From: a phage
Sequence record: PV730302.1
Length of the DNA stretch: 64,000 bases
Reading direction: 5' to 3' (one strand)
The position numbers and the translations under genes are program-made. The number at the start of each line of letters is the position of its first letter. Positions within the stretch are counted from its first letter, which is position 1. Under the pieces are notes generated by a model. The model was not told where the DNA came from, made no database searches, and was given only the letters and a program-made list of their open reading frames with translations. This document shows positions 3,280-53,898 of the stretch, piece after piece.

Positions 3280-3411
3280 TTATTTTATTCCTCGGTTGAT
3301 AGCCTTATCGACTATCTTCCGGACTTCTCGTTTCTCGAGCCAGCATAATAATAACAAGGCTCCGAAAGAGAATAATAACAAACCTATAAAAAGCAATAAA
3401 GGACCTAGCAT
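3280..3411 (-). CDS. small hydrophobic peptide (43 aa), putative
   Basis: ATG 3411-3409 with GAGGA SD 8 nt upstream; translation MLGPLLLFIGLLLFSFGALLLLCWLEKREVRKIVDKAINRGIK; below the ORF-track size cutoff. Confidence 0.3.
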   Translation of the reverse strand: MLGPLLLFIGLLLFSFGALLLLCWLEKREVRKIVDKAINRGIK

Positions 3412-4298
3412 ACTACGTCCTCATAACTTGGCATTTCGTGCTCAGAATGGATATGGGCGCCGAAATAAATGAATTCAGCTAGACCAGGATGGAATACTAA
3501 ACCTGGGTTCTCATGATAAATGATATGAGGTCTTGATTTCAGAATCTGATAATATTCAACCTTACTCGGTTTGAATTTAATAATCTCTACATCAGGACGA
3601 TAGTCTTCACGTTTAAACGAATCATTCGGGTCGGTTATATAAAGACGAGCACCTTCAGCCGCAGCTTGGTCTACAACTCTTTCGAATTGATAACACTTAT
3701 CCGAAATACGGAATGGGTGGAAAATACCATCAATTTTAATAGGCGCTAGGCCTTCAGAGTAACGCTCAATTACTGCCGGATTAATTACCTTTTGGTCTAC
3801 AAAAATCTTATCAGAGGACGCACCTCGTGACACCAGGACGTCTTTCTGACATTGATTCAGGACTGTGGTATAAATCGAACGTTCAACTGAGGACACGTCG
3901 GTATCAATAAACTCGTCGATATAATAACGAGGAACTTCAGGGTCCATTGTAATGTTAAAGTTGAATTGTACAGTCTGAGTGCCATCATAACCTGTGATAT
4001 CGGTTACCAATCCTGAGCAGTCATAGTATTCGATTAACGAATCAACAACGAACTCGTTTTCAGACCAAAAATGTTTACGAGTTTCATAAGCATTTTCTTT
4101 ATACCAAAGCGGTACAAAATTCAGTTCAGGAAATAATTCAATGCATTCTTTGATATCGCTCGAATTTCTAGGATAAGCCAGATAATCACCTGGGCAAGCA
4201 CGGTTTAAATGGAGTTGAAAATTACCGTCCTTAAGGACGGCATATTCACCTGTTTCGTAACTACGCATACTGAAAATAGGAACGATAAACAAACTCAT
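3405..4298 (-). CDS. hypothetical protein (297 aa) occupying the T4 beta-glucosyltransferase slot
   Basis: ATG 4298-4296 overlaps the gene 42 stop (ATGA coupling); no similarity to recalled T4 beta-gt; no obvious motifs. Confidence 0.6.
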   Translation of the reverse strand: MSLFIVPIFSMRSYETGEYAVLKDGNFQLHLNRACPGDYLAYPRNSSDIKECIELFPELNFVPLWYKENAYETRKHFWSENEFVVDSLIEYYDCSGLVTDITGYDGTQTVQFNFNITMDPEVPRYYIDEFIDTDVSSVERSIYTTVLNQCQKDVLVSRGASSDKIFVDQKVINPAVIERYSEGLAPIKIDGIFHPFRISDKCYQFERVVDQAAAEGARLYITDPNDSFKREDYRPDVEIIKFKPSKVEYYQILKSRPHIIYHENPGLVFHPGLAEFIYFGAHIHSEHEMPSYEDVVC

Positions 4299-4993
4299 TT
4301 CAGGAATCCTCGAACGTAGTCAAAATCACGTTCAAATACGTGTGCACTAACCATAGTATGGGAATACGTACCCAGACCAACACCACACTGTTCAGCAATA
4401 AAGGCCATCAGTTTACCCTGCAGATAGAAATCCAGCTGCATAACGATAGCACAGTTCTGTGAACGCATATGAGTATGTGCATACAGACGTCCATCACGAA
4501 TATAATATGTCACCGAATCGGTACATGGGTATTCTAAGGATTCGTCAGAATCAAGGAGGGCCTGGTCTTGTTCTTGGAGAATTTGGAACACAACTCGTCT
4601 TGAGTTAGGCTTCTCTTTAAGCTCTTTAAGTAGGGCCGGGAGTTGGGCCACAATTCGAGGTCCATAGAAAGTGTTGAAGTTTGCAGGCAATACGTCACTT
4701 TTCGGCTTATCAATGAACTTAGCAACATTAGGATATTCCTTAAATGCTTCAGCAGCGTCAGTACCACCAGAAATCATAAACTTCCAAAAGGATTCGGCAT
4801 AATCATAGTTGATACGATTAATACGAGGGTCGGTGAATTTATAGGTGCTTGCATCCAGTACTTCTACCGAAGCAGAACCAATTTCATAACAACGGCCGAT
4901 ACGAGAATCAACTGCAAACTGTGGAGCTTCCAGGATTTCTTCGTTCATTTGCTTAAACGCGTTTTCAAAACTAACAGCGGTAATGTGTTTCAT
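4295..4993 (-). CDS. 42: dCMP hydroxymethylase-like enzyme (thymidylate synthase superfamily, gp42 homolog)
   Basis: 232 aa; KPNSRRVVF, YPCTDSVTYYIRD and MRSQN...QLD align with T4 gp42 NPDSRRGIMIY, CTNTVQYLIRD and RSND...RND; the aspartate that T4 uses for cytosine specificity is conserved; SD AAGGTGA. Confidence 0.85.
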   Translation of the reverse strand: MKHITAVSFENAFKQMNEEILEAPQFAVDSRIGRCYEIGSASVEVLDASTYKFTDPRINRINYDYAESFWKFMISGGTDAAEAFKEYPNVAKFIDKPKSDVLPANFNTFYGPRIVAQLPALLKELKEKPNSRRVVFQILQEQDQALLDSDESLEYPCTDSVTYYIRDGRLYAHTHMRSQNCAIVMQLDFYLQGKLMAFIAEQCGVGLGTYSHTMVSAHVFERDFDYVRGFLK

Positions 4994-5526
4994 TTATTCA
5001 CCTTATTTTCAATATATTCATTCAGACGTTTTAATTCTACCATATCGACGTTAAGCAAGTTATTATGGCCGTCGTGATTTAAGATTTTAAACACGTTTTC
5101 AAAACATGTTTCATATTGCCGGATAGTTAGGTTGAACTCATCTTTGGTTAATTTAATAAGGTCATCTTCAAAGTCTTTATCTAATGGATTACGGGTTAAA
5201 ATAACCTCAATAATATTGAATTCTTTTTTGAAATCAATCCAATCTGCTAATTCTACATAAGGGTCCATTTCACCACGAAGGAATCCCGAGTAAACAATAT
5301 TACTAGGATACCCACGGTCTAAGATGTAGACAAAATTAGGGTCTAAAAACTTATACAACGTCTCGACTAAAGCCTTGTCATTATCAGTCCCTAATGAAAT
5401 GCATTTGCCGTTAATCTTTTTAGGGAAATCGATAAGACGATATTTCTTATCAGATAAAAGTGATTCAATTAAAGTAGACTTCCCGGAATTATCCGGGCCG
5501 TCGATAACAATGATTTTTGGTTTCAC
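4990..5526 (-). CDS. P-loop nucleotide kinase, thymidylate-kinase/deoxynucleoside-kinase-like
   Basis: 178 aa; Walker A IDGPDNSGKST and DRG(Y) motif; GTG start overlapping the HAD stop (GTGA); stop overlaps the gene 42 ATG (ATGA). Confidence 0.7.
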   Translation of the reverse strand: MKPKIIVIDGPDNSGKSTLIESLLSDKKYRLIDFPKKINGKCISLGTDNDKALVETLYKFLDPNFVYILDRGYPSNIVYSGFLRGEMDPYVELADWIDFKKEFNIIEVILTRNPLDKDFEDDLIKLTKDEFNLTIRQYETCFENVFKILNHDGHNNLLNVDMVELKRLNEYIENKVNK

Positions 5527-5882
5527 GGATGATATGCCTTATAGGTTTCAAGAGTTCCTTCACGAACCATTTCTTTAAAGTGGTCAGGACGGATTGCTCG
5601 GTCATCGATGATAAAAGTATAACTCGGCTTATGTGTAAGCAGATTGTGATATTTCAATCCAATCTTTTCAAGGTTCTTAACTAATGCAGGAACTACTTCA
5701 ACCAAGATTCGACCCGGGCCGCATGAAGTCATACCACGGGCAGTGAACAAGGTAATCTCGTACCCTTCATCATAAAGCTTATTAATCATGGACACCATTT
5801 CGGTGTCCGGTTTAAAGTTTTCGTAATCACGGTCATCTTGCCAGTGAGTAATGGTATTATCGATATCAAAACACAGATGCAT
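5523..5882 (-). CDS. HAD-superfamily phosphatase (small)
   Basis: Motif I DIDNT near the N-terminus; start taken at the ATG at 5882-5880 overlapping the upstream stop (TAATG) rather than the track start at 5897. Confidence 0.65.
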   Translation of the reverse strand: MHLCFDIDNTITHWQDDRDYENFKPDTEMVSMINKLYDEGYEITLFTARGMTSCGPGRILVEVVPALVKNLEKIGLKYHNLLTHKPSYTFIIDDRAIRPDHFKEMVREGTLETYKAYHP

Positions 5883-7555
5883 TAAATTTTCTTCCATTGT
5901 TTGTGGAGTTCGGTAGAACCTGTAGGTTTATATTTTACACCAGTTTCTTGGTCAAGCAAAACCCACTTATCAGGACAACGAGTGATAATTTGAGCCGTGA
6001 TAGGGTCACGAACTTCATCAACGAATTCACCTGTGATAAGCTTACGCTTACGAGGATGCCGCTTCAGCAGCACACTCAATTGATATAGACCGTTGTAATA
6101 AGCACCCAGAGCTTTCAGAGGGTTATTTTTAAAGTAACCTGCCAATGCCATCCAGATAACAGCAATCCAGAGCTTGTGCTTAAATGTACACATCGGAATA
6201 TCATCTAAAGGCATAACCTTTTCAATATCAACGAATACACGAGTTCCGTTACGAGTTAAGCCACCCCATAGAGGGTCAGAGTTAAATTTGTCATAACCAT
6301 CGATAGAATAAAGCACCTTAGCTTCATCATAAATCGCAGGGCCTTTAGAACTATTACCAAAATAACCACGTGGGTCGATGATTTTAATATTACCTTCGTC
6401 CGACAACATAATATTACTGTAGTGCGGGTCGCCATGAATAAGTTGGTACGGTTCTTTATGTTCAGACAGAATTTCTAAGGCGTGACGAAGAAGTTTTTCC
6501 GGGTCGCCTACCTTAAAGTCATTGACATGGGTAATGCCCTGTGGAGCAAAGCCTTCAATCAATCCAGCAATAGAAGCATTACGAATAAGGACCTTGTCCA
6601 ATACTTCTTTCTTAACATCAGAATACCATTGCTCATCAGATGGATTATCGATGGTTCCACCAAATGAACGTAATGCACTAATGACCTTATAAACCATGAG
6701 GACTTTAGTTTCTTTAGACATAAACCGGTAGGCATCTGCCATGGTGCGTCCAAAGATACGTTCCATTTTAATGAATTCACCTGGAGCAAAGTCTACAATG
6801 CTCGGAACGAATTCAGAATCAATAGAATTGTACCAATTGATTTCTTTAGATTGGATTTCTTTACCTAATTCGTTAGTTGGTACTTTAATAGCCAGATTCT
6901 CAGTGAACTCTAATTTATTAAATTCACGGTTAATTTCAGAATCTTCATGGGCCTTAGCCAGTTTCAATTTGTCACCGACATCAACCACAAAGTCCAGCTT
7001 ACGTTCAGTCAAATGGACCATCGAATCCAGGTTGTCGGCAAGGTCTTCGCCATAATACAGACCGTTAAAACCTGTCCAATTGGCTACTTGATACAAACCA
7101 ACCACACCGCCACCAGTACCAATTTCACGCAAGTATGGTTCTTCAAATGTAAAACGACAGTCAGTCCCATAGGTATAACAGTAGTCGTTATCCCACTCAA
7201 CCTTATAACCTTCAGGAATAATATCACACCAGTTAAACAAGACATTGTGCCCGATGATATCTTCAGCAATGCAATCGATAGCATGAGCTGAACCATTGGC
7301 CACATCTACGTTACGAATAGTGAATTTAGGCTTATCACTATTAATCATATTAATGGATTTAATATAGCCTTTAACGAGGTCGTTAAATTTGCTGTGAATA
7401 ACCAGAATAATTTCATCCGATTGGTTACTATACAAATCGTACAAATGTTTTAATACGGTATGTTGTTTGTAGTTAACCAGTACCTTCGGGATTTCGTTGG
7501 TAATTGGATACAACCGTGAGCCAAGACCCGCGCCTAAAATAACAACCTTTTTCAT
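5882..7555 (-). CDS. bifunctional sugar-1-phosphate nucleotidyltransferase (N-terminal, RmlA-like) / APH-choline-kinase-like phosphotransferase (C-terminal)
   Basis: N-terminal VVILGAGLGSRLYPITNEIPKVL is a classic NTP-transferase signature; C-terminal HGDPHYSN and IIDPRG resemble the APH/ChoK catalytic loop; start at ATG 7555 with GAGGAA SD. Confidence 0.75.
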   Translation of the reverse strand: MKKVVILGAGLGSRLYPITNEIPKVLVNYKQHTVLKHLYDLYSNQSDEIILVIHSKFNDLVKGYIKSINMINSDKPKFTIRNVDVANGSAHAIDCIAEDIIGHNVLFNWCDIIPEGYKVEWDNDYCYTYGTDCRFTFEEPYLREIGTGGGVVGLYQVANWTGFNGLYYGEDLADNLDSMVHLTERKLDFVVDVGDKLKLAKAHEDSEINREFNKLEFTENLAIKVPTNELGKEIQSKEINWYNSIDSEFVPSIVDFAPGEFIKMERIFGRTMADAYRFMSKETKVLMVYKVISALRSFGGTIDNPSDEQWYSDVKKEVLDKVLIRNASIAGLIEGFAPQGITHVNDFKVGDPEKLLRHALEILSEHKEPYQLIHGDPHYSNIMLSDEGNIKIIDPRGYFGNSSKGPAIYDEAKVLYSIDGYDKFNSDPLWGGLTRNGTRVFVDIEKVMPLDDIPMCTFKHKLWIAVIWMALAGYFKNNPLKALGAYYNGLYQLSVLLKRHPRKRKLITGEFVDEVRDPITAQIITRCPDKWVLLDQETGVKYKPTGSTELHKQWKKI

Positions 7556-7615
7556 TATCTGTTCCTCAAGTGAATGTAGGTACATTATACACTATTTTTA
7601 ATAAATTGGTATTGC

Positions 7616-8116
7616 TTAAATCTTATCTTTACCGATTTCAATACACTGTTCTATTGCCGCCGGTACTTTGGTCTTGAGCTTATCGATTTGTTTCTTATAA
7701 TCACGAGCTTTACCGAAGCTCTCAGTTTCGAGCATTTCGTAATAACGAGCTTCATGGATAGAAATCTGTAGATTGATATGGTTTACGCACATCGCATACA
7801 GTTTCTGCTTTTTGTACAAATCATCTTGGCGCTTCATTTCTGCCTGGTGTTTGGCTAGTACCGCTTCACGCTTGGACTCTTGTTCACGTTGGAATTCGAT
7901 TTCTCGTTGAGCATATTTTGCACAGTTATTACCACATTGATTATTAGCTCGGGTATACACAAGTCCAGAACCAGCACGGAATTTCATTTCGCCATCGAAT
8001 TGTTTCTGTTCAGCCGCGATACGAGCTTTACCAACTTCATCAGCCGAAACTGCATCACCATATTGGACCGCGCAACCTGATAGGAGCATACTCATTGCGA
8101 TAATTAACTTTTTCAT
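7616..8116 (-). CDS. putative lipoprotein (166 aa), function unknown
   Basis: Signal peptide with lipobox MLLSGC; ATG 8116 with GAGGA SD; charged coiled-coil-like body. Confidence 0.65.
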   Translation of the reverse strand: MKKLIIAMSMLLSGCAVQYGDAVSADEVGKARIAAEQKQFDGEMKFRAGSGLVYTRANNQCGNNCAKYAQREIEFQREQESKREAVLAKHQAEMKRQDDLYKKQKLYAMCVNHINLQISIHEARYYEMLETESFGKARDYKKQIDKLKTKVPAAIEQCIEIGKDKI

Positions 8117-39084: not shown

Positions 39085-39373
39085 ATTTTTTCCAATCAGA
39101 AATCATATGAATCTCTTGGTCATAAGTCAAGAGACTACGAGCAATAATACCCTTACAAGGCCCTGAGATGAACTCGAGAGTGAAGTAAGGAACCTGTTTC
39201 ATTAATCGGATACTAGGAGCATGACATCTAAAACGAGAGCCCTTAAAGGGCCCTGTCATGAATACATATTCCAATGGGTAGAAATAAGCATATTCGAAAT
39301 TTGCAGTAAGGTCCTCTCTTCGAACCTTACGTGAGAAATAACAGAACTCAAAAAGTTCTTCATCAGTCATCAT
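39077..39373 (-). CDS. hypothetical protein (98 aa)
   Basis: Start at ATG 39373 overlapping the upstream stop (ATGA); SD AGGAAT. Confidence 0.45.
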   Translation of the reverse strand: MMTDEELFEFCYFSRKVRREDLTANFEYAYFYPLEYVFMTGPFKGSRFRCHAPSIRLMKQVPYFTLEFISGPCKGIIARSLLTYDQEIHMISDWKKYV

Positions 39374-39897
39374 TGCATTCCTATCACAAAGAACAGAGGC
39401 AAAGGCTTGTCGCCTTGGCACATAAATTTATTAATCATTACCTGGTAAGCTTCATAGAACTTATCCATCGCTGGAAGGCGCATTGGCTCTTCGATAATAA
39501 TCAATAATCGAGTAACAGATAGTCCACGATACTTATGGAAATTGTCTTCATCAAGGAAACTGCGCACAGTATCATAGACAACAAAACCAGGACCTTCGAC
39601 TTGGAGATGTGGGTGTGCCTTAGAAACCTGTTTTATTACATTACAAATTTCTCGCGAGCGATGCGAAGAACTCGACATAACAATCACATCATTACCCTTG
39701 GAAACCCAATCAGCGGCGAACTGAGCAAGGGCACTTGTTTTACCTGTTTGGCGTCCGCCATCAAGTCGAAGAGTACCAAACTCTTGCATTCTTGAAGCAG
39801 GTTCATACCATGTGTATTGGTCTGAGTCTAAACGTTCAATGGCGCGTTCAGCGAAGGCGTGCATTAAGGTTAGATAAATGGGAGTTAAAAATTTCAT
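39370..39897 (-). CDS. small P-loop NTPase-like protein (175 aa)
   Basis: Walker A GGRQTGKTS and hydrophobic-acidic LLIIIEEP Walker-B-like strand. Confidence 0.5.
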   Translation of the reverse strand: MKFLTPIYLTLMHAFAERAIERLDSDQYTWYEPASRMQEFGTLRLDGGRQTGKTSALAQFAADWVSKGNDVIVMSSSSHRSREICNVIKQVSKAHPHLQVEGPGFVVYDTVRSFLDEDNFHKYRGLSVTRLLIIIEEPMRLPAMDKFYEAYQVMINKFMCQGDKPLPLFFVIGMQ

Positions 39898-40057: not shown

Positions 40058-40357
40058 TTAGAAAGAACCAGAACCTCTAATTGTGTTCTGGCGACCTTTA
40101 TTTTCTAATTCATAGTCGTCGATTTCGTAGGCTTGTGCTACACCAAAAGCCTTTTTAACTTTAGCTAAAGAGCCTTTAGACGTAACAATATTAAAAGTAT
40201 TACCTTTGGTAAAATCAACCAAATCCACTTGTACACCCTGTTTACCGAGGCTTGCTACAATAGCATCAACATATTCCTGGTCTAAATTGCCTTGAACTCC
40301 AATTTGAAATACTTTAGGAGCTTTGGCTTCTGTAATAAATTCTTGGTAAGTTTTCAT
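40058..40357 (-). CDS. internal-protein-like capsid cargo (CTS-tagged, 99 aa)
   Basis: N-terminus MKTYQEFITE matches the T4 internal-protein capsid targeting sequence; body unrelated to the other copies. Confidence 0.65.
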   Translation of the reverse strand: MKTYQEFITEAKAPKVFQIGVQGNLDQEYVDAIVASLGKQGVQVDLVDFTKGNTFNIVTSKGSLAKVKKAFGVAQAYEIDDYELENKGRQNTIRGSGSF

Positions 40358-40399
40358 ATTATTCCTTAAGTTGGTAGAAGTATTCTATCACGGATTTAA

Positions 40400-40816
40400 T
40401 TAAGCGTAAATCGCCTTACCATAATGTTTGTACCAGGTAGGGCGTTGTGCAATTTTTTCGTCCAAACGGGCTTGTGAAATGGCGATAGAAGCTTCGTGAG
40501 GAACATAATCATCACGGAATTCCTGAGGAATGTCACTAATGTCCTGGACAGTAGTATCCTTGATATTAAAACCACGTTTTAAACATTCGGCTATAAGCTC
40601 AATTTGTCGCTTACGTAAAAATTCAAGCTTATCGTAAAAGAATGTAACATGGCCTGTGCCAAGGATAAAAGTAGGACTGATTTTGAAATCACGGACACGT
40701 TTACCATTAGCAACATGCTTACGAACTGCACCGAAAACACGTGGTAATTCACGATATTCAGCCATTAAGTGTTGGTCAGCCAATTCAGATACTAAGGTAA
40801 GGTTGATACGAGTCAT
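40400..40816 (-). CDS. denV: endonuclease V (pyrimidine-dimer DNA glycosylase) DenV
   Basis: 138 aa; only a handful of differences from recalled T4 endonuclease V. Confidence 0.95.
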
Positions 40817-40872
40817 TTTTAATCTCCTGTAGTTGATAGGTCTATAGTATCATGACTACAGGAGATGTAAAC
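40817..40872 (-). promoter_or_regulatory. early promoter with SD-complementary spacer arm (denV)
   Basis: GTTTAC-ATCTCCTGTAGTCATGA-TACTAT-AGACCTATCAACTACAGGAGATTAAAAATG; 11-nt perfect inverted repeat TCTCCTGTAGT / ACTACAGGAGA. Confidence 0.6.
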
Positions 40873-40896
40873 AACTTTTATCAAGTATCGGCTTTA

Positions 40897-41493
40897 TTAA
40901 TTACCACGGGCTGCATTAGCAACGGCGTAAGCGTACTGAATATTAGCGTCTTTAAACGTACCTTTAGAGGTATCTATTTCTGCCTTAAAGCCGCCTTTAG
41001 CCATAACATCGGCAAATTCTTTACGGAAAGTCATTGCATCAAGACCTTTCCATGTTGATTTGTGCTTGGCAAATTCAAGACCAGCGAAGTTGACAGCCTT
41101 AGCCAATTTATTATCAATAGTCCATTTACCTGCTTTAGGTACAAACACCGGGCCTTTCTGTTTAGAGAACAGTTTTAAATTCCAGCGACGAAGGTCACCG
41201 TCAGCTTTAACAAAAGCTGCGTCCAAGTTACTAGCAACAACATCTTGGATATGGGCAAATTTAAGTCCATCAGCTTCAATATTTAGGTCGTTACGCCAGC
41301 GAAGTCCTTCCCAGGCGAAAGCTTTAAAGTCGGAAGCTTTTGTAGCCAAGTACCGTTCAATAGGAGCTGTTTTAGCGTCAAAACCGTTTCCTGGGTTGTC
41401 AACGCCGTTTCCTTTGTAAGTCCACTCATCTTTATTAATGCCTTGGACCTTTCCTACAGAAGCTTCGGCGATAAATTCTTTATACGTTTTCAT
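40897..41493 (-). CDS. internal-protein-like capsid cargo (CTS-tagged, 198 aa)
   Basis: N-terminus MKTYKEFIAE; Lys/Ala-rich body. Confidence 0.65.
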   Translation of the reverse strand: MKTYKEFIAEASVGKVQGINKDEWTYKGNGVDNPGNGFDAKTAPIERYLATKASDFKAFAWEGLRWRNDLNIEADGLKFAHIQDVVASNLDAAFVKADGDLRRWNLKLFSKQKGPVFVPKAGKWTIDNKLAKAVNFAGLEFAKHKSTWKGLDAMTFRKEFADVMAKGGFKAEIDTSKGTFKDANIQYAYAVANAARGN

Positions 41494-41575
41494 ACGGGTT
41501 CCTTAAAGGTAAATATTTTAATTGGTCTGTTCAAGTAACTGTAGATATACTATCACAATTCTAGGAGATGTAAAC
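41494..41575 (-). promoter_or_regulatory. early promoter (GTTTAC-17-TAGTAT)
   Basis: Minus-strand GTTTACATCTCCTAGAATTGTGATAGTAT. Confidence 0.5.
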
Positions 41576-41974
41576 TTATTTGTAGGTCTTCATCCAATTC
41601 TTGAACAAAGCCGCGACGTCTTTCTCTTTAACGTTCAGTTTAATGTCCAACATTTTACCACCGGCAGCACGTGTCTGACGAATCTTAGCAGTACCGGTTT
41701 CGCCATTCCACTCAACATAATACTGCCCAGTGTTCATTGCAATACCATCGCCGTAGTCTTCATTTTTAGAAGTTGTGAAGGCCAGCTTCATAGTCTTAGA
41801 TACACGAGCCTGCATGCCAGTCTGAAGGGCATTACGAACGCGAATAACTTGAGGAGTGGCCTGGGTCAGGTTCTCATTCAGTTCTTCAGTGAACTCTTCA
41901 GATTCAAACATCGCCAAAAGTTCTTTAGATGCAGGAATTACATTCTCTGCGATAAATTCATTATAAGTTTTCAT
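41576..41974 (-). CDS. internal-protein-like capsid cargo (CTS-tagged, 132 aa)
   Basis: N-terminus [10 protein letters not shown]. Confidence 0.65.
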
Positions 41975-42455
41975 ATGCTTTCCAAGTACCTGTTTTAAAT
42001 GTTGAAATCACGCGCTTAGCACGATTAGGAGTTTGTTTATACCAACGGGATTGAGCCAGGTTAACTGCCGCATCGTTCCAACGTTTCTGTTGGAGCATAC
42101 GTAAAGAGTTAGTGAACCCTGCTACGCCTGCTTCACCCATTTGGAAGACCATGTTAATTAAAGCACAACGACGAACTTCGTCCAGTACATCATAAACAGG
42201 TTTCAATTTAGGATTACGCAGAATAGCTCTACGAGCATTTTCAACCGATCGGTTAAAGAGTTGTTCAGCTTCAGCCATAGTAATACGACCATTACAAACT
42301 CGACCCATAAGCTTATCAAGTTCAGCACGAGCAACATCTTTAGAAGGGTTCTTAGTAATCAATTGGCCAATACCAATAGTCCAATAACCTTCAGTGTCTT
42401 TATAAAGATTTAAATCAAGACCTTCGTCTTGACGTAACATATCAAAAATATCCAT
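41961..42455 (-). CDS. e: lysozyme (endolysin) gene e
   Basis: 164 aa, about 80 percent identical to recalled T4 lysozyme; catalytic E11 and D20 conserved. Confidence 0.95.
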
Positions 42456-42480
42456 AATACCTCCTGAGTATAGGAGGTAT
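42456..42480 (-). promoter_or_regulatory. gene e translational-control hairpin sequestering the SD
   Basis: Minus-strand ATACCTCCT-ATACTC-AGGAGGTAT, perfect 9-bp stem, with AGGAGG 4 nt upstream of the ATG. Confidence 0.55.
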
Positions 42481-42485
42481 TTATA

Positions 42486-50843: not shown

Positions 50844-51308
50844 TTATTTGATTTGTTTAGCAGACCAGATACGGTCTTTGATGATTTTCTGAATATCTTC
50901 AACATACTCTAAGTCGTGAGCATGCGGATTATCTTTGAAGCTATGTGCTCGTGCTAGTTTCTGGCCTTCTGTTTTGATTACTAAAAGCTCTTTAAGAATT
51001 GCTTCATACTTAGAAATAATTCCTTTGGCGATATTTTTTTCTTGAGCGGCTTTAGGGTCTGCTTTTGTAGCAGGTGCTTTACCTGTAGCTTTCTGGAACA
51101 ATTCACCTGATGCAGCTAGGCTTTTAAAAACTCGGCTAACAGTATTAGCATTAGTAAAACCTTCGGCTTTAAAATCTCTAATAAAACGGAAACGTTCTTC
51201 ATCAGAGGCGTCTTTGTAAGAATATTTACCTGCTTGAATTGCTGCAATCGCAGCGGCTTTTACATCTGAACTAGATTGTTCAGTCAAAAATTCATTGTAA
51301 GTTTTCAT
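50844..51308 (-). CDS. internal-protein-like capsid cargo (CTS-tagged, 154 aa)
   Basis: N-terminus MKTYNEFLTE; Lys/Ala-rich body. Confidence 0.6.
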   Translation of the reverse strand: MKTYNEFLTEQSSSDVKAAAIAAIQAGKYSYKDASDEERFRFIRDFKAEGFTNANTVSRVFKSLAASGELFQKATGKAPATKADPKAAQEKNIAKGIISKYEAILKELLVIKTEGQKLARAHSFKDNPHAHDLEYVEDIQKIIKDRIWSAKQIK

Positions 51309-53256: not shown

Positions 53257-53565
53257 CTATTTTATTCCGCGTGATGCAATCGTATTCTGCCGTTTAACGC
53301 CAGTTTGTTTAAAGTTATGATTGTCGAGTTGATCGGTACGAGCAACTCCGAATGATGATTTAATCTTAGCTTTAGATCCTTTAGTTATAGAAATAAACAT
53401 CTCGGGAGCCCCTTTCTTAAAGTCCGAAGCAATTACTTCAACACCGTTCTTAGCAAGTGACCTCAGAATTGCTTCCACATACTCATCATCAAGACCCGCT
53501 TGAGTATGAATAACGAATGTCTTTGGTGCAGCCGCTTCATTGATAAATTCTTTATAGGTTTTCAT
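53257..53565 (-). CDS. internal-protein-like capsid cargo (CTS-tagged, 102 aa)
   Basis: N-terminus MKTYKEFINE; ipI-locus position next to 57B. Confidence 0.6.
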   Translation of the reverse strand: MKTYKEFINEAAAPKTFVIHTQAGLDDEYVEAILRSLAKNGVEVIASDFKKGAPEMFISITKGSKAKIKSSFGVARTDQLDNHNFKQTGVKRQNTIASRGIK

Positions 53566-53625: not shown

Positions 53626-53898
53626 TCATTTTAAATAAATTGCATACTTTTTATAACCGGCCGTTTCGTGACGCAGCCCTTTTTCATTAGCAAAACGTTC
53701 AATATTGTTAATTTGATTCTGGTCGAGTTCTGAAGTATCAAATACAAAAAAGTTTCGCTTATTGCCTAAAGTTACGTGATTAGTCAAATCGATGTTATAG
53801 AGATGATTTATATCATCAATCATAGTCTTAACAGATTTGTTAATTTTTACTTCCTCATTAAGAATAGATTCAGCGATAAATTCTTGATAAGTTTTCAT
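53626..53898 (-). CDS. internal-protein-like capsid cargo (CTS-tagged, 90 aa)
   Basis: N-terminus MKTYQEFIAE identical to the T4 CTS. Confidence 0.6.
   Translation of the reverse strand: MKTYQEFIAESILNEEVKINKSVKTMIDDINHLYNIDLTNHVTLGNKRNFFVFDTSELDQNQINNIERFANEKGLRHETAGYKKYAIYLK

Follow-up and report, generated by a model that had tools for sequence, protein, structure and literature searches.

We analysed the internal-protein locus of a phage in a 64,000-nucleotide stretch of DNA (sequence record PV730302.1; hereafter the window, meaning this whole stretch), where three genes on the minus strand encode proteins that start with a capsid-targeting sequence (CTS) and lie around denV and beside the lysozyme gene e. 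An initial annotation had placed three such open reading frames (ORFs) at 40058–40357, 40897–41493 and 41576–41974, and ATG ORFs of 99, 198 and 132 amino acids (aa), assigned to phrog_2667, phrog_5341 and phrog_15461, respectively, occupy exactly these positions. Their neighbours, also named at the outset, were confirmed by Pfam as e (41961..42455, minus strand; PF00959) and denV, encoding endonuclease V (40400..40816, minus strand; PF03013, E = 1e-14; phrog_1183), the latter a conserved anchor gene outside the tagged set. Transcription on the minus strand would run through e, the 132-aa ORF, the 198-aa ORF, denV and the 99-aa ORF. The T4 map reads e, ipIII, ipII, denV, vs.8 in the same neighbourhood, and these matching neighbours identify the classical ipII/ipIII locus. 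Megablast of the locus, with 97–98% identity to MX01 and QL01 and 93% to JS98 and JS10, places the window in a Dhakavirus, a JS98-like T4-type coliphage. From residue 11 onward the three proteins are unrelated, as had been claimed, with no pair aligning in BLASTP at E ≤ 10: one gene is ipIII, one is Ip7 and the third belongs to a rare unannotated family.

The 99-aa protein starts with MKTYQEFITE and the 198-aa protein with MKTYKEFIAE. Six-frame translation of the window yields six instances of the general pattern, MKTY.EF[IL].E, against none in 200 shuffles and an analytic expectation of 2.9e-6, so the tag is not a product of chance. Scanning all ATG ORFs in the window uncovered three further tagged genes; the reported three are real, but the window holds six tagged proteins in five families, and a trio at the ipI locus had been overlooked. 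All six copies keep M1, K2, T3, Y4, E6, F7 and E10 (positions 1–4, 6, 7 and 10) unchanged; position 8 holds either Ile or Leu, positions 5 and 9 are variable, and the codons differ synonymously from tag to tag (ACT/ACG/ACC, TAC/TAT, ATT/ATC and GAA/GAG).

This pattern can be laid over T4 genetics. The first ten residues of T4 IPIII suffice for packaging, residues 4 and 7 serve targeting, and residues 8 and 10 serve processing by gp21, which cleaves after L/I-x-E (PMC9026906). Both targeting residues, Tyr4 and Phe7, are present in all six tagged ORFs, and the gp21 site is present as a motif at residues 8–10 of the three e–denV ORFs (ITE, IAE and IAE). Conserved and variable positions match the T4 functional map exactly and distant homologues keep the tag, which together argue for selection on the peptide. 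Because all T4-mapped functional residues are kept while third codon positions vary, the description of the decapeptide as a CTS holds. The gp21 protease and scaffolding genes are core genes of T4-like phages (PMC9026906); in MX01, the closest complete genome (98% nucleotide identity at the locus), used here to stand in for scaffold and protease gene content, the genes for gp67, gp68, gp21, gp22 and gp23 lie at 101.8–104.0 kb, a region outside the 64-kb window.

Identity of the three tagged proteins

The 198-aa ORF is identified as an orthologue of T4 IPIII (Ip3) by 87% identity over its full length (NP_049735; E = 2e-129), by its match to phrog_5341 (E = 3e-115) and by the annotation of its homologues in JS98 and JS10 as ipIII. 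Its predicted mature product has 188 aa (20.7 kDa, isoelectric point (pI) 9.5), and by orthology the protein is very likely an inhibitor of the GmrSD type.

By homology, the 99-aa ORF belongs to Ip7, a family that already had a name. End to end (1–99 of 101 positions; E = 2e-42) it matches phrog_2667, 'internal head protein'; its homologues in phages VR20 and VR25 are labelled ip7, and the family is present in 284 phage records, T2 and RB69 among them. Ip7 was reportedly named in T-even phages by Repoila et al. in 1994; a literature search on the name Ip7 found nothing usable. Besides the copy next to denV, the window carries a paralogue of 50% identity at the classical ipI locus (53257–53565). 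The predicted mature product has 89 aa (9.6 kDa, pI 8.2), and the AlphaFold2 model, with a predicted local distance difference test score (pLDDT) of 75.5, shows a ferredoxin-like beta-alpha-beta-beta-alpha-beta core. Searches of the PDB with the Ip7 profile gave chance-level matches only, including one to a DARPin (E = 0.02). A similar length and locus had made ipII a candidate for this ORF, which was rejected for lack of body similarity to T4 IPII; the T4 IPII body gave no alignment to any of the three ORF bodies at E ≤ 10, and T4 IPII matched the 154-aa tagged ORF of the ipI locus at chance level only (E = 0.17).

The 132-aa protein matches phrog_15461, of 'unknown function', at E = 8e-92. 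tblastn found its family in 50 phage records, and all 40 of those listed call it a 'hypothetical protein'; hosts include Escherichia and Salmonella (Dhakavirus), Klebsiella (Marfavirus), Serratia (phages 4S and WSPA) and Erwinia (phage Cronus). Homologues with 39.7–57% body identity retain the tag (MKSYNQFLDE and MKTYKEFLAE are among the tags found), and the distant members from Serratia phage 4S, Erwinia phage Cronus and metagenomes fit MK[TS][YF]..[FY][IL].E. A profile search of 1.8e9 representative proteins returned four real clusters of the family, all with CTS-like starts. Capture of a cellular or phage protein by the tag was considered for this gene and rejected, since no tag-less relative was found among these 1.8 billion proteins. 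One metagenomic relative of 194 aa (P0040) has a CTS-like start, MKSFDQYIME, and ~90 further residues that form an extra domain on the N-terminal side of the conserved core, an architecture that marks this core of ~100 residues as a portable module. From its sequence relationships, phrog_15461 is likely an internal-protein family that has so far gone without that label, and a family listed until now as 'hypothetical' or of 'unknown function' can be flagged accordingly.

The predicted mature form of the 132-aa protein has a mass of 13.8 kDa and a pI of 8.8, and its AlphaFold2 model is weak (pLDDT 62), with a disordered N terminus followed by a helix, five strands and a helix. A second motif, L-N-E, lies at residues 32–34 (41873–41881) and reads I-N-E in phage 4S; its Glu and the next Asn are invariant in a 10-sequence alignment of the family, and the segment from Glu10 to L-N-E is acidic, variable, interrupted by insertions and deletions and predicted to be disordered. 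gp21 may cut this protein twice, after Glu10 and after L-N-E, discarding an acidic disordered pro-segment. Positions 30–101 of the family profile gave weak repeated matches to the D3 region of Salmonella flagellin (E = 0.011–0.04), which are probably compositional; the fold search on the 132-aa protein neither confirmed nor excluded a flagellin relation.

Locus architecture and probable cassette exchange

The additional tagged genes, also on the minus strand, are found at coordinates 9–12 kb higher, in the classical ipI locus next to 57B. The fourth CTS ORF (50844..51308; 154 aa, MKTYNEFLTE) belongs to phrog_2280, 'unknown function'; the fifth (53257..53565; 102 aa) is the Ip7 paralogue; and the sixth (53626..53898; 90 aa, MKTYQEFIAE), directly downstream of 57B, belongs to phrog_7673, 'internal head protein'. 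Both clusters are placed at hypervariable Ip loci, the first between e and denV and the second adjoining 57B in the 57B–tRNA region. Comparison of the window proteins with the T4 IPI* body gave chance-level alignments only, with E of at least 1.4. Downstream of the e–denV locus, a vs.8 homologue (39370–39897, minus strand; phrog_1488, unknown function) has weak P-loop/AAA and terminase-N-like Pfam matches (E = 0.01–0.06), all below cut-offs.

T4-early, sigma-70-like sites with an extended TG lie upstream of the 99-aa gene, denV and ipIII, all on the minus strand. The site of the 99-aa gene (40382..40410; TTTACG, 17 nucleotides (nt), TAGAAT) overlaps the denV stop codon. Upstream of denV, a promoter and stem-loop of the PeSL (promoter/stem-loop cassette) type span 40817..40872, with the promoter proper (40871..40844; TTTACA, 16 nt, TACTAT) inside a 17-nt inverted repeat. 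The ipIII element (41546..41575; site 41574..41547) reads GTTTACA, 16 nt, TAGTAT, and together with the denV element it forms a 30-nt repeat of 80% identity. Sigma-70-like matches are not enriched in the region (8 versus 8.8 in shuffles), so the case for these promoters rests on their position and on the repeat. We found no intergenic promoter for the 132-aa gene: the one promoter-like match nearby (41681..41652) falls within the gene itself, and the first promoter motif upstream is of the late type, TATAAATA, located before e at 42478..42485 (minus strand) and the only exact match to the T4 late-promoter motif in the locus. The initial annotation had given each gene its own early promoter, which stands for the 99- and 198-aa genes but fails for the 132-aa gene, which overlaps the end of e and whose sole nearby promoter is the late promoter of e. 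The 99- and 198-aa genes are probably expressed early from PeSL-type promoters, and their late transcription probably results from read-through that starts at the late promoter of e.

Relatives carry the same elements in other combinations. The window has the order e–132–ipIII–denV–ip7; MX01 and UGJNEcP3 have an extra T4-like ipII between denV and ipIII; JS98 reads e–ipIII–132–denV–ip7; EcWhh-1 is without ipIII; Klebsiella phage Marfa reads e–132–ip–denV–ipIII–ip; and in Serratia phage 4S and Erwinia phage Cronus the 132-type gene stands alone between e and denV. In WG01 the ip7 copy is replaced by two other tagged ORFs of 119 and 85 aa. These are unannotated internal-protein candidates in their own right: an 85-aa CTS ORF starting MKTYQEFITE at 1636–1893 of the WG01 locus stretch, and a 119-aa CTS ORF starting MKTYQQFITE at 1902–2261, assigned to phrog_3966. 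The ipII gene gives a clean presence/absence difference between genomes that are ~98% identical (window 40817–40896 versus MX01 locus stretch 5293–5696), and the MX01 product (gp113, 100 aa) is 94% identical to T4 IPII.

The CTS-coding DNA itself forms a 38-nt direct repeat in three copies (68–84% identity), and with the 30-nt promoter repeat it leaves each cassette bounded by short homologies. The differences among relatives fit cassette shuffling through these repeated tag-coding and promoter sequences, a recombination route that we infer from sequence comparison. Both ends of the 132-aa gene carry small irregularities: its start overlaps the last 14 nt of e (41961–41974), within the e codons for AYENL and the stop, its C terminus, WMKTYK followed by the stop (41576–41593), repeats the first five residues of the tag, and its stop abuts a GTTTAC −35 box, here and in JS98, despite a different downstream gene. 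These ends may be scars of microhomology-based recombination.

Function and alternative explanations

We propose, with a probability of about 78%, that the three proteins are packaged, protease-trimmed and injected anti-defence cargo of the ipII/ipIII locus of a Dhakavirus. The CTS, that is, the first ten residues, would attach the newly made protein to the prohead's scaffolding core of gp22, and the gp21 prohead protease would cleave after Glu10 (I-x-E). The mature proteins of 9.6, 20.7 and 13.8 kDa would remain in the head with the DNA, be ejected together with the genome or before it into the next host, and neutralise defences that are active before any phage gene expression. Packaging, cleavage and injection are known from T4 and carried over by homology; for the 99- and 132-aa proteins, we infer packaging, cleavage and anti-defence activity.

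The system itself is established, with the concept dating from 1994–2010 and experimental confirmation from 2007–2025. PMC3012670, citing Repoila 1994, describes T-even internal proteins as diverse injected defence proteins with only the CTS in common, and both PMC3012670 and PMC12373910 credit Bair, Rifat and Black (2007) with the finding that IPI* blocks GmrSD of CT596. On ECOR17 ipIII is required, and its product works from the cytoplasm even without the tag (PMC9391042). Ip1, Ip2 and Ip3 act on one GmrSD variant each, Ip2 inhibiting that of ECOR21 and Ip3 the two-gene system of E. coli ECOR17 with no cross-protection, and the study suggests GmrSD variants as the targets of every protein from the two Ip loci (PMC12373910). 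Another CTS protein, Bas37_0260, inhibits McrBC (10.1101/2025.11.20.689424). Four T-even internal proteins have an assigned function, and each of them thus blocks a specific modification-dependent restriction enzyme, which makes the tagged proteins good anti-restriction leads. They may also lead to the host enzymes that they block, and the target is known for one of the five CTS families in the window. IPIII orthology and the literature on T-even internal proteins support the earlier suggestion that each of the three is a candidate injected anti-defence protein. By analogy with Ip1, Ip2, Ip3 and Bas37_0260, our best estimate is that the 99- and 132-aa proteins act stoichiometrically as specific inhibitors of other nucleases that strike early, most likely of further variants of modification-dependent (type IV) restriction enzymes.

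The probable chemistry of the phage DNA bears on what these targets could be. A cytosine-arabinosylation-type cluster, recognised by synteny with the RB69-type cluster, lies between uvsX and imm/gene 43 (3405–8116, minus strand); on the same strand it includes a thymidylate-synthase homologue (4295–4993) and a nucleotidyl-transferase/kinase fusion found in 364 phage records (5882–7585). The MX01 annotation of this region lists no glucosyltransferase, and we consider the phage DNA probably arabinosylated and not glucosylated. A 2026 study links the cluster to arabinosyl-5-hydroxycytosine and counts Dhakaviruses and Marfaviruses among its carriers (PMC13326640). Given this probable modification, the window cargo may report on defences against arabinosylated DNA. 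The 132-aa family was seen only outside T-even phages with glucosylated hydroxymethylcytosine (among the 40 records listed of 50), which allows a role against a defence aimed at arabinosylation; that phrog_15461 forms an unrecognised injected class with this very function, possibly cut twice, is a speculative proposal that we think unlikely to be correct.

Several observations weigh against the assignment as anti-defence cargo, mostly for the 99- and 132-aa proteins. A Pfam search of the three proteins returned no domain, which counts against the assignment for these two; sequence and profile searches of the PDB with both gave chance-level matches only and no solved relative, and the fold-search matches of their models were generic. 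Structure prediction had been suggested for each body; the 99- and 132-aa folds could be modelled, but they suggest no enzyme domain and function could not be read from them. A literature search found no virion proteomics for the 99- and 132-aa families or for JS98-like phages. Because the window phage carries an arabinosyl-cytosine cluster in place of the glucosyl-hydroxymethylcytosine genes, what is known of targets from work on glucosylated T-even DNA may not hold for it directly. In T4, IPIII also influences how fast heads are assembled (PMC9026906), and anti-defence may not be its sole role.

In one alternative the proteins are mainly structural components of the head interior, acting as basic DNA counter-ions or scaffold helpers that support head assembly and the packing of DNA, and not in anti-defence. 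In their predicted mature form the proteins are small and mostly basic (pI 8.2, 9.5 and 8.8 for the 99-, 198- and 132-aa proteins, with 11–30 Lys plus Arg), T4 packs ~300 copies of each internal protein per head, with DNA binding at low salt, and T4 IPIII mutants assemble heads at half the rate and give a 40% burst (PMC9026906). However, a T4 triple internal-protein mutant is viable (PMC9026906), near-identical Dhakaviruses vary in their gene set, which is unexpected for a needed structural part, and the four assigned T-even functions are all inhibition of type IV restriction. We therefore doubt that structure is the main role, while noting that structural and anti-defence roles are not mutually exclusive for IpIII. 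A further alternative, which we rate as improbable, is that the proteins are injected effectors of host takeover comparable to the T4 Alt ADP-ribosyltransferase, acting on host transcription or metabolism and not against immunity.

The shared N terminus could, finally, be a by-product of translation-initiation or recombination sequence, leaving the proteins, or at least the 132-aa one, unpackaged. The 38-nt direct repeat could persist by gene conversion, and the 132-aa gene begins within the 3' end of e. Against this, the amino acids are fixed despite variation at third codon positions; the two residues that do vary are precisely those of no importance in T4 genetics (PMC9026906); homologues from Serratia and Erwinia phages, with bodies ~40% identical, still carry the motif, encoded by other codons and with conservative substitutions; and in JS98 the 132-aa gene is detached from e and still keeps its tag. 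An initiation-region artefact, which the initial annotation had named as one finding that would overturn its proposal, is very unlikely on these grounds, and we give the by-product explanation as a whole next to no weight. Injected anti-defence cargo remains the reading that we prefer.

Comparison with known systems

One close counterpart is T4 IPIII, which shares the e–denV locus and a similar size (193 versus 198 aa) with the window protein, and from whose CTS the window decapeptide MKTYKEFIAE deviates at position 5 only. The two differ in a six-residue insertion near residues 28–33 of the window protein, and the window phage is predicted to have arabinosylated, not glucosylated, cytosine in its DNA. 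T4 IPII (NP_049734) has the same CTS, nearly the same length as the 99-aa ORF and the same locus in T4 and MX01, but no body similarity to the window proteins, and the window is without the ipII of MX01 and UGJNEcP3. T4 IPI*, with a nuclear magnetic resonance structure (Rifat et al. 2008), follows the same delivery logic with a small alpha/beta body; the arrangement given for it in PMC3012670, beta sheets with a helix on either side at the N and C termini, resembles the low-confidence 132-aa model. Bas37_0260 of Tequatrovirus KarlGJung (MZ501089) comes from an Ip locus and starts with an identical CTS, MKTYQEFIAE; it differs in its size (77 aa) and family (phrog_8111), and was rejected as a relative because in sequence comparison it resembled none of the six proteins of the window. 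Neither the 99-aa nor the 132-aa protein is homologous to Ip1, Ip2, Ip3 or Bas37_0260.

Mobile promoter/stem-loop cassettes of the PeSL type have reportedly been described by Arbiol (2010) and Comeau (2014). The window resembles such cassettes of T4-type phages in having an early-type promoter within an inverted repeat upstream of denV and a repeated promoter element that flanks its variable ORFs. The denV hexamers match the PeSL consensus of T4 and PST, TTTACW..N17..TAYWAT (PMC4122927), with a spacer of 16 and not 17. To this arrangement the window adds an in-frame CTS-coding repeat as a second homology for cassette exchange, and its overall pattern agrees with the published polymorphism of Ip loci and with PeSL-mediated shuffling.

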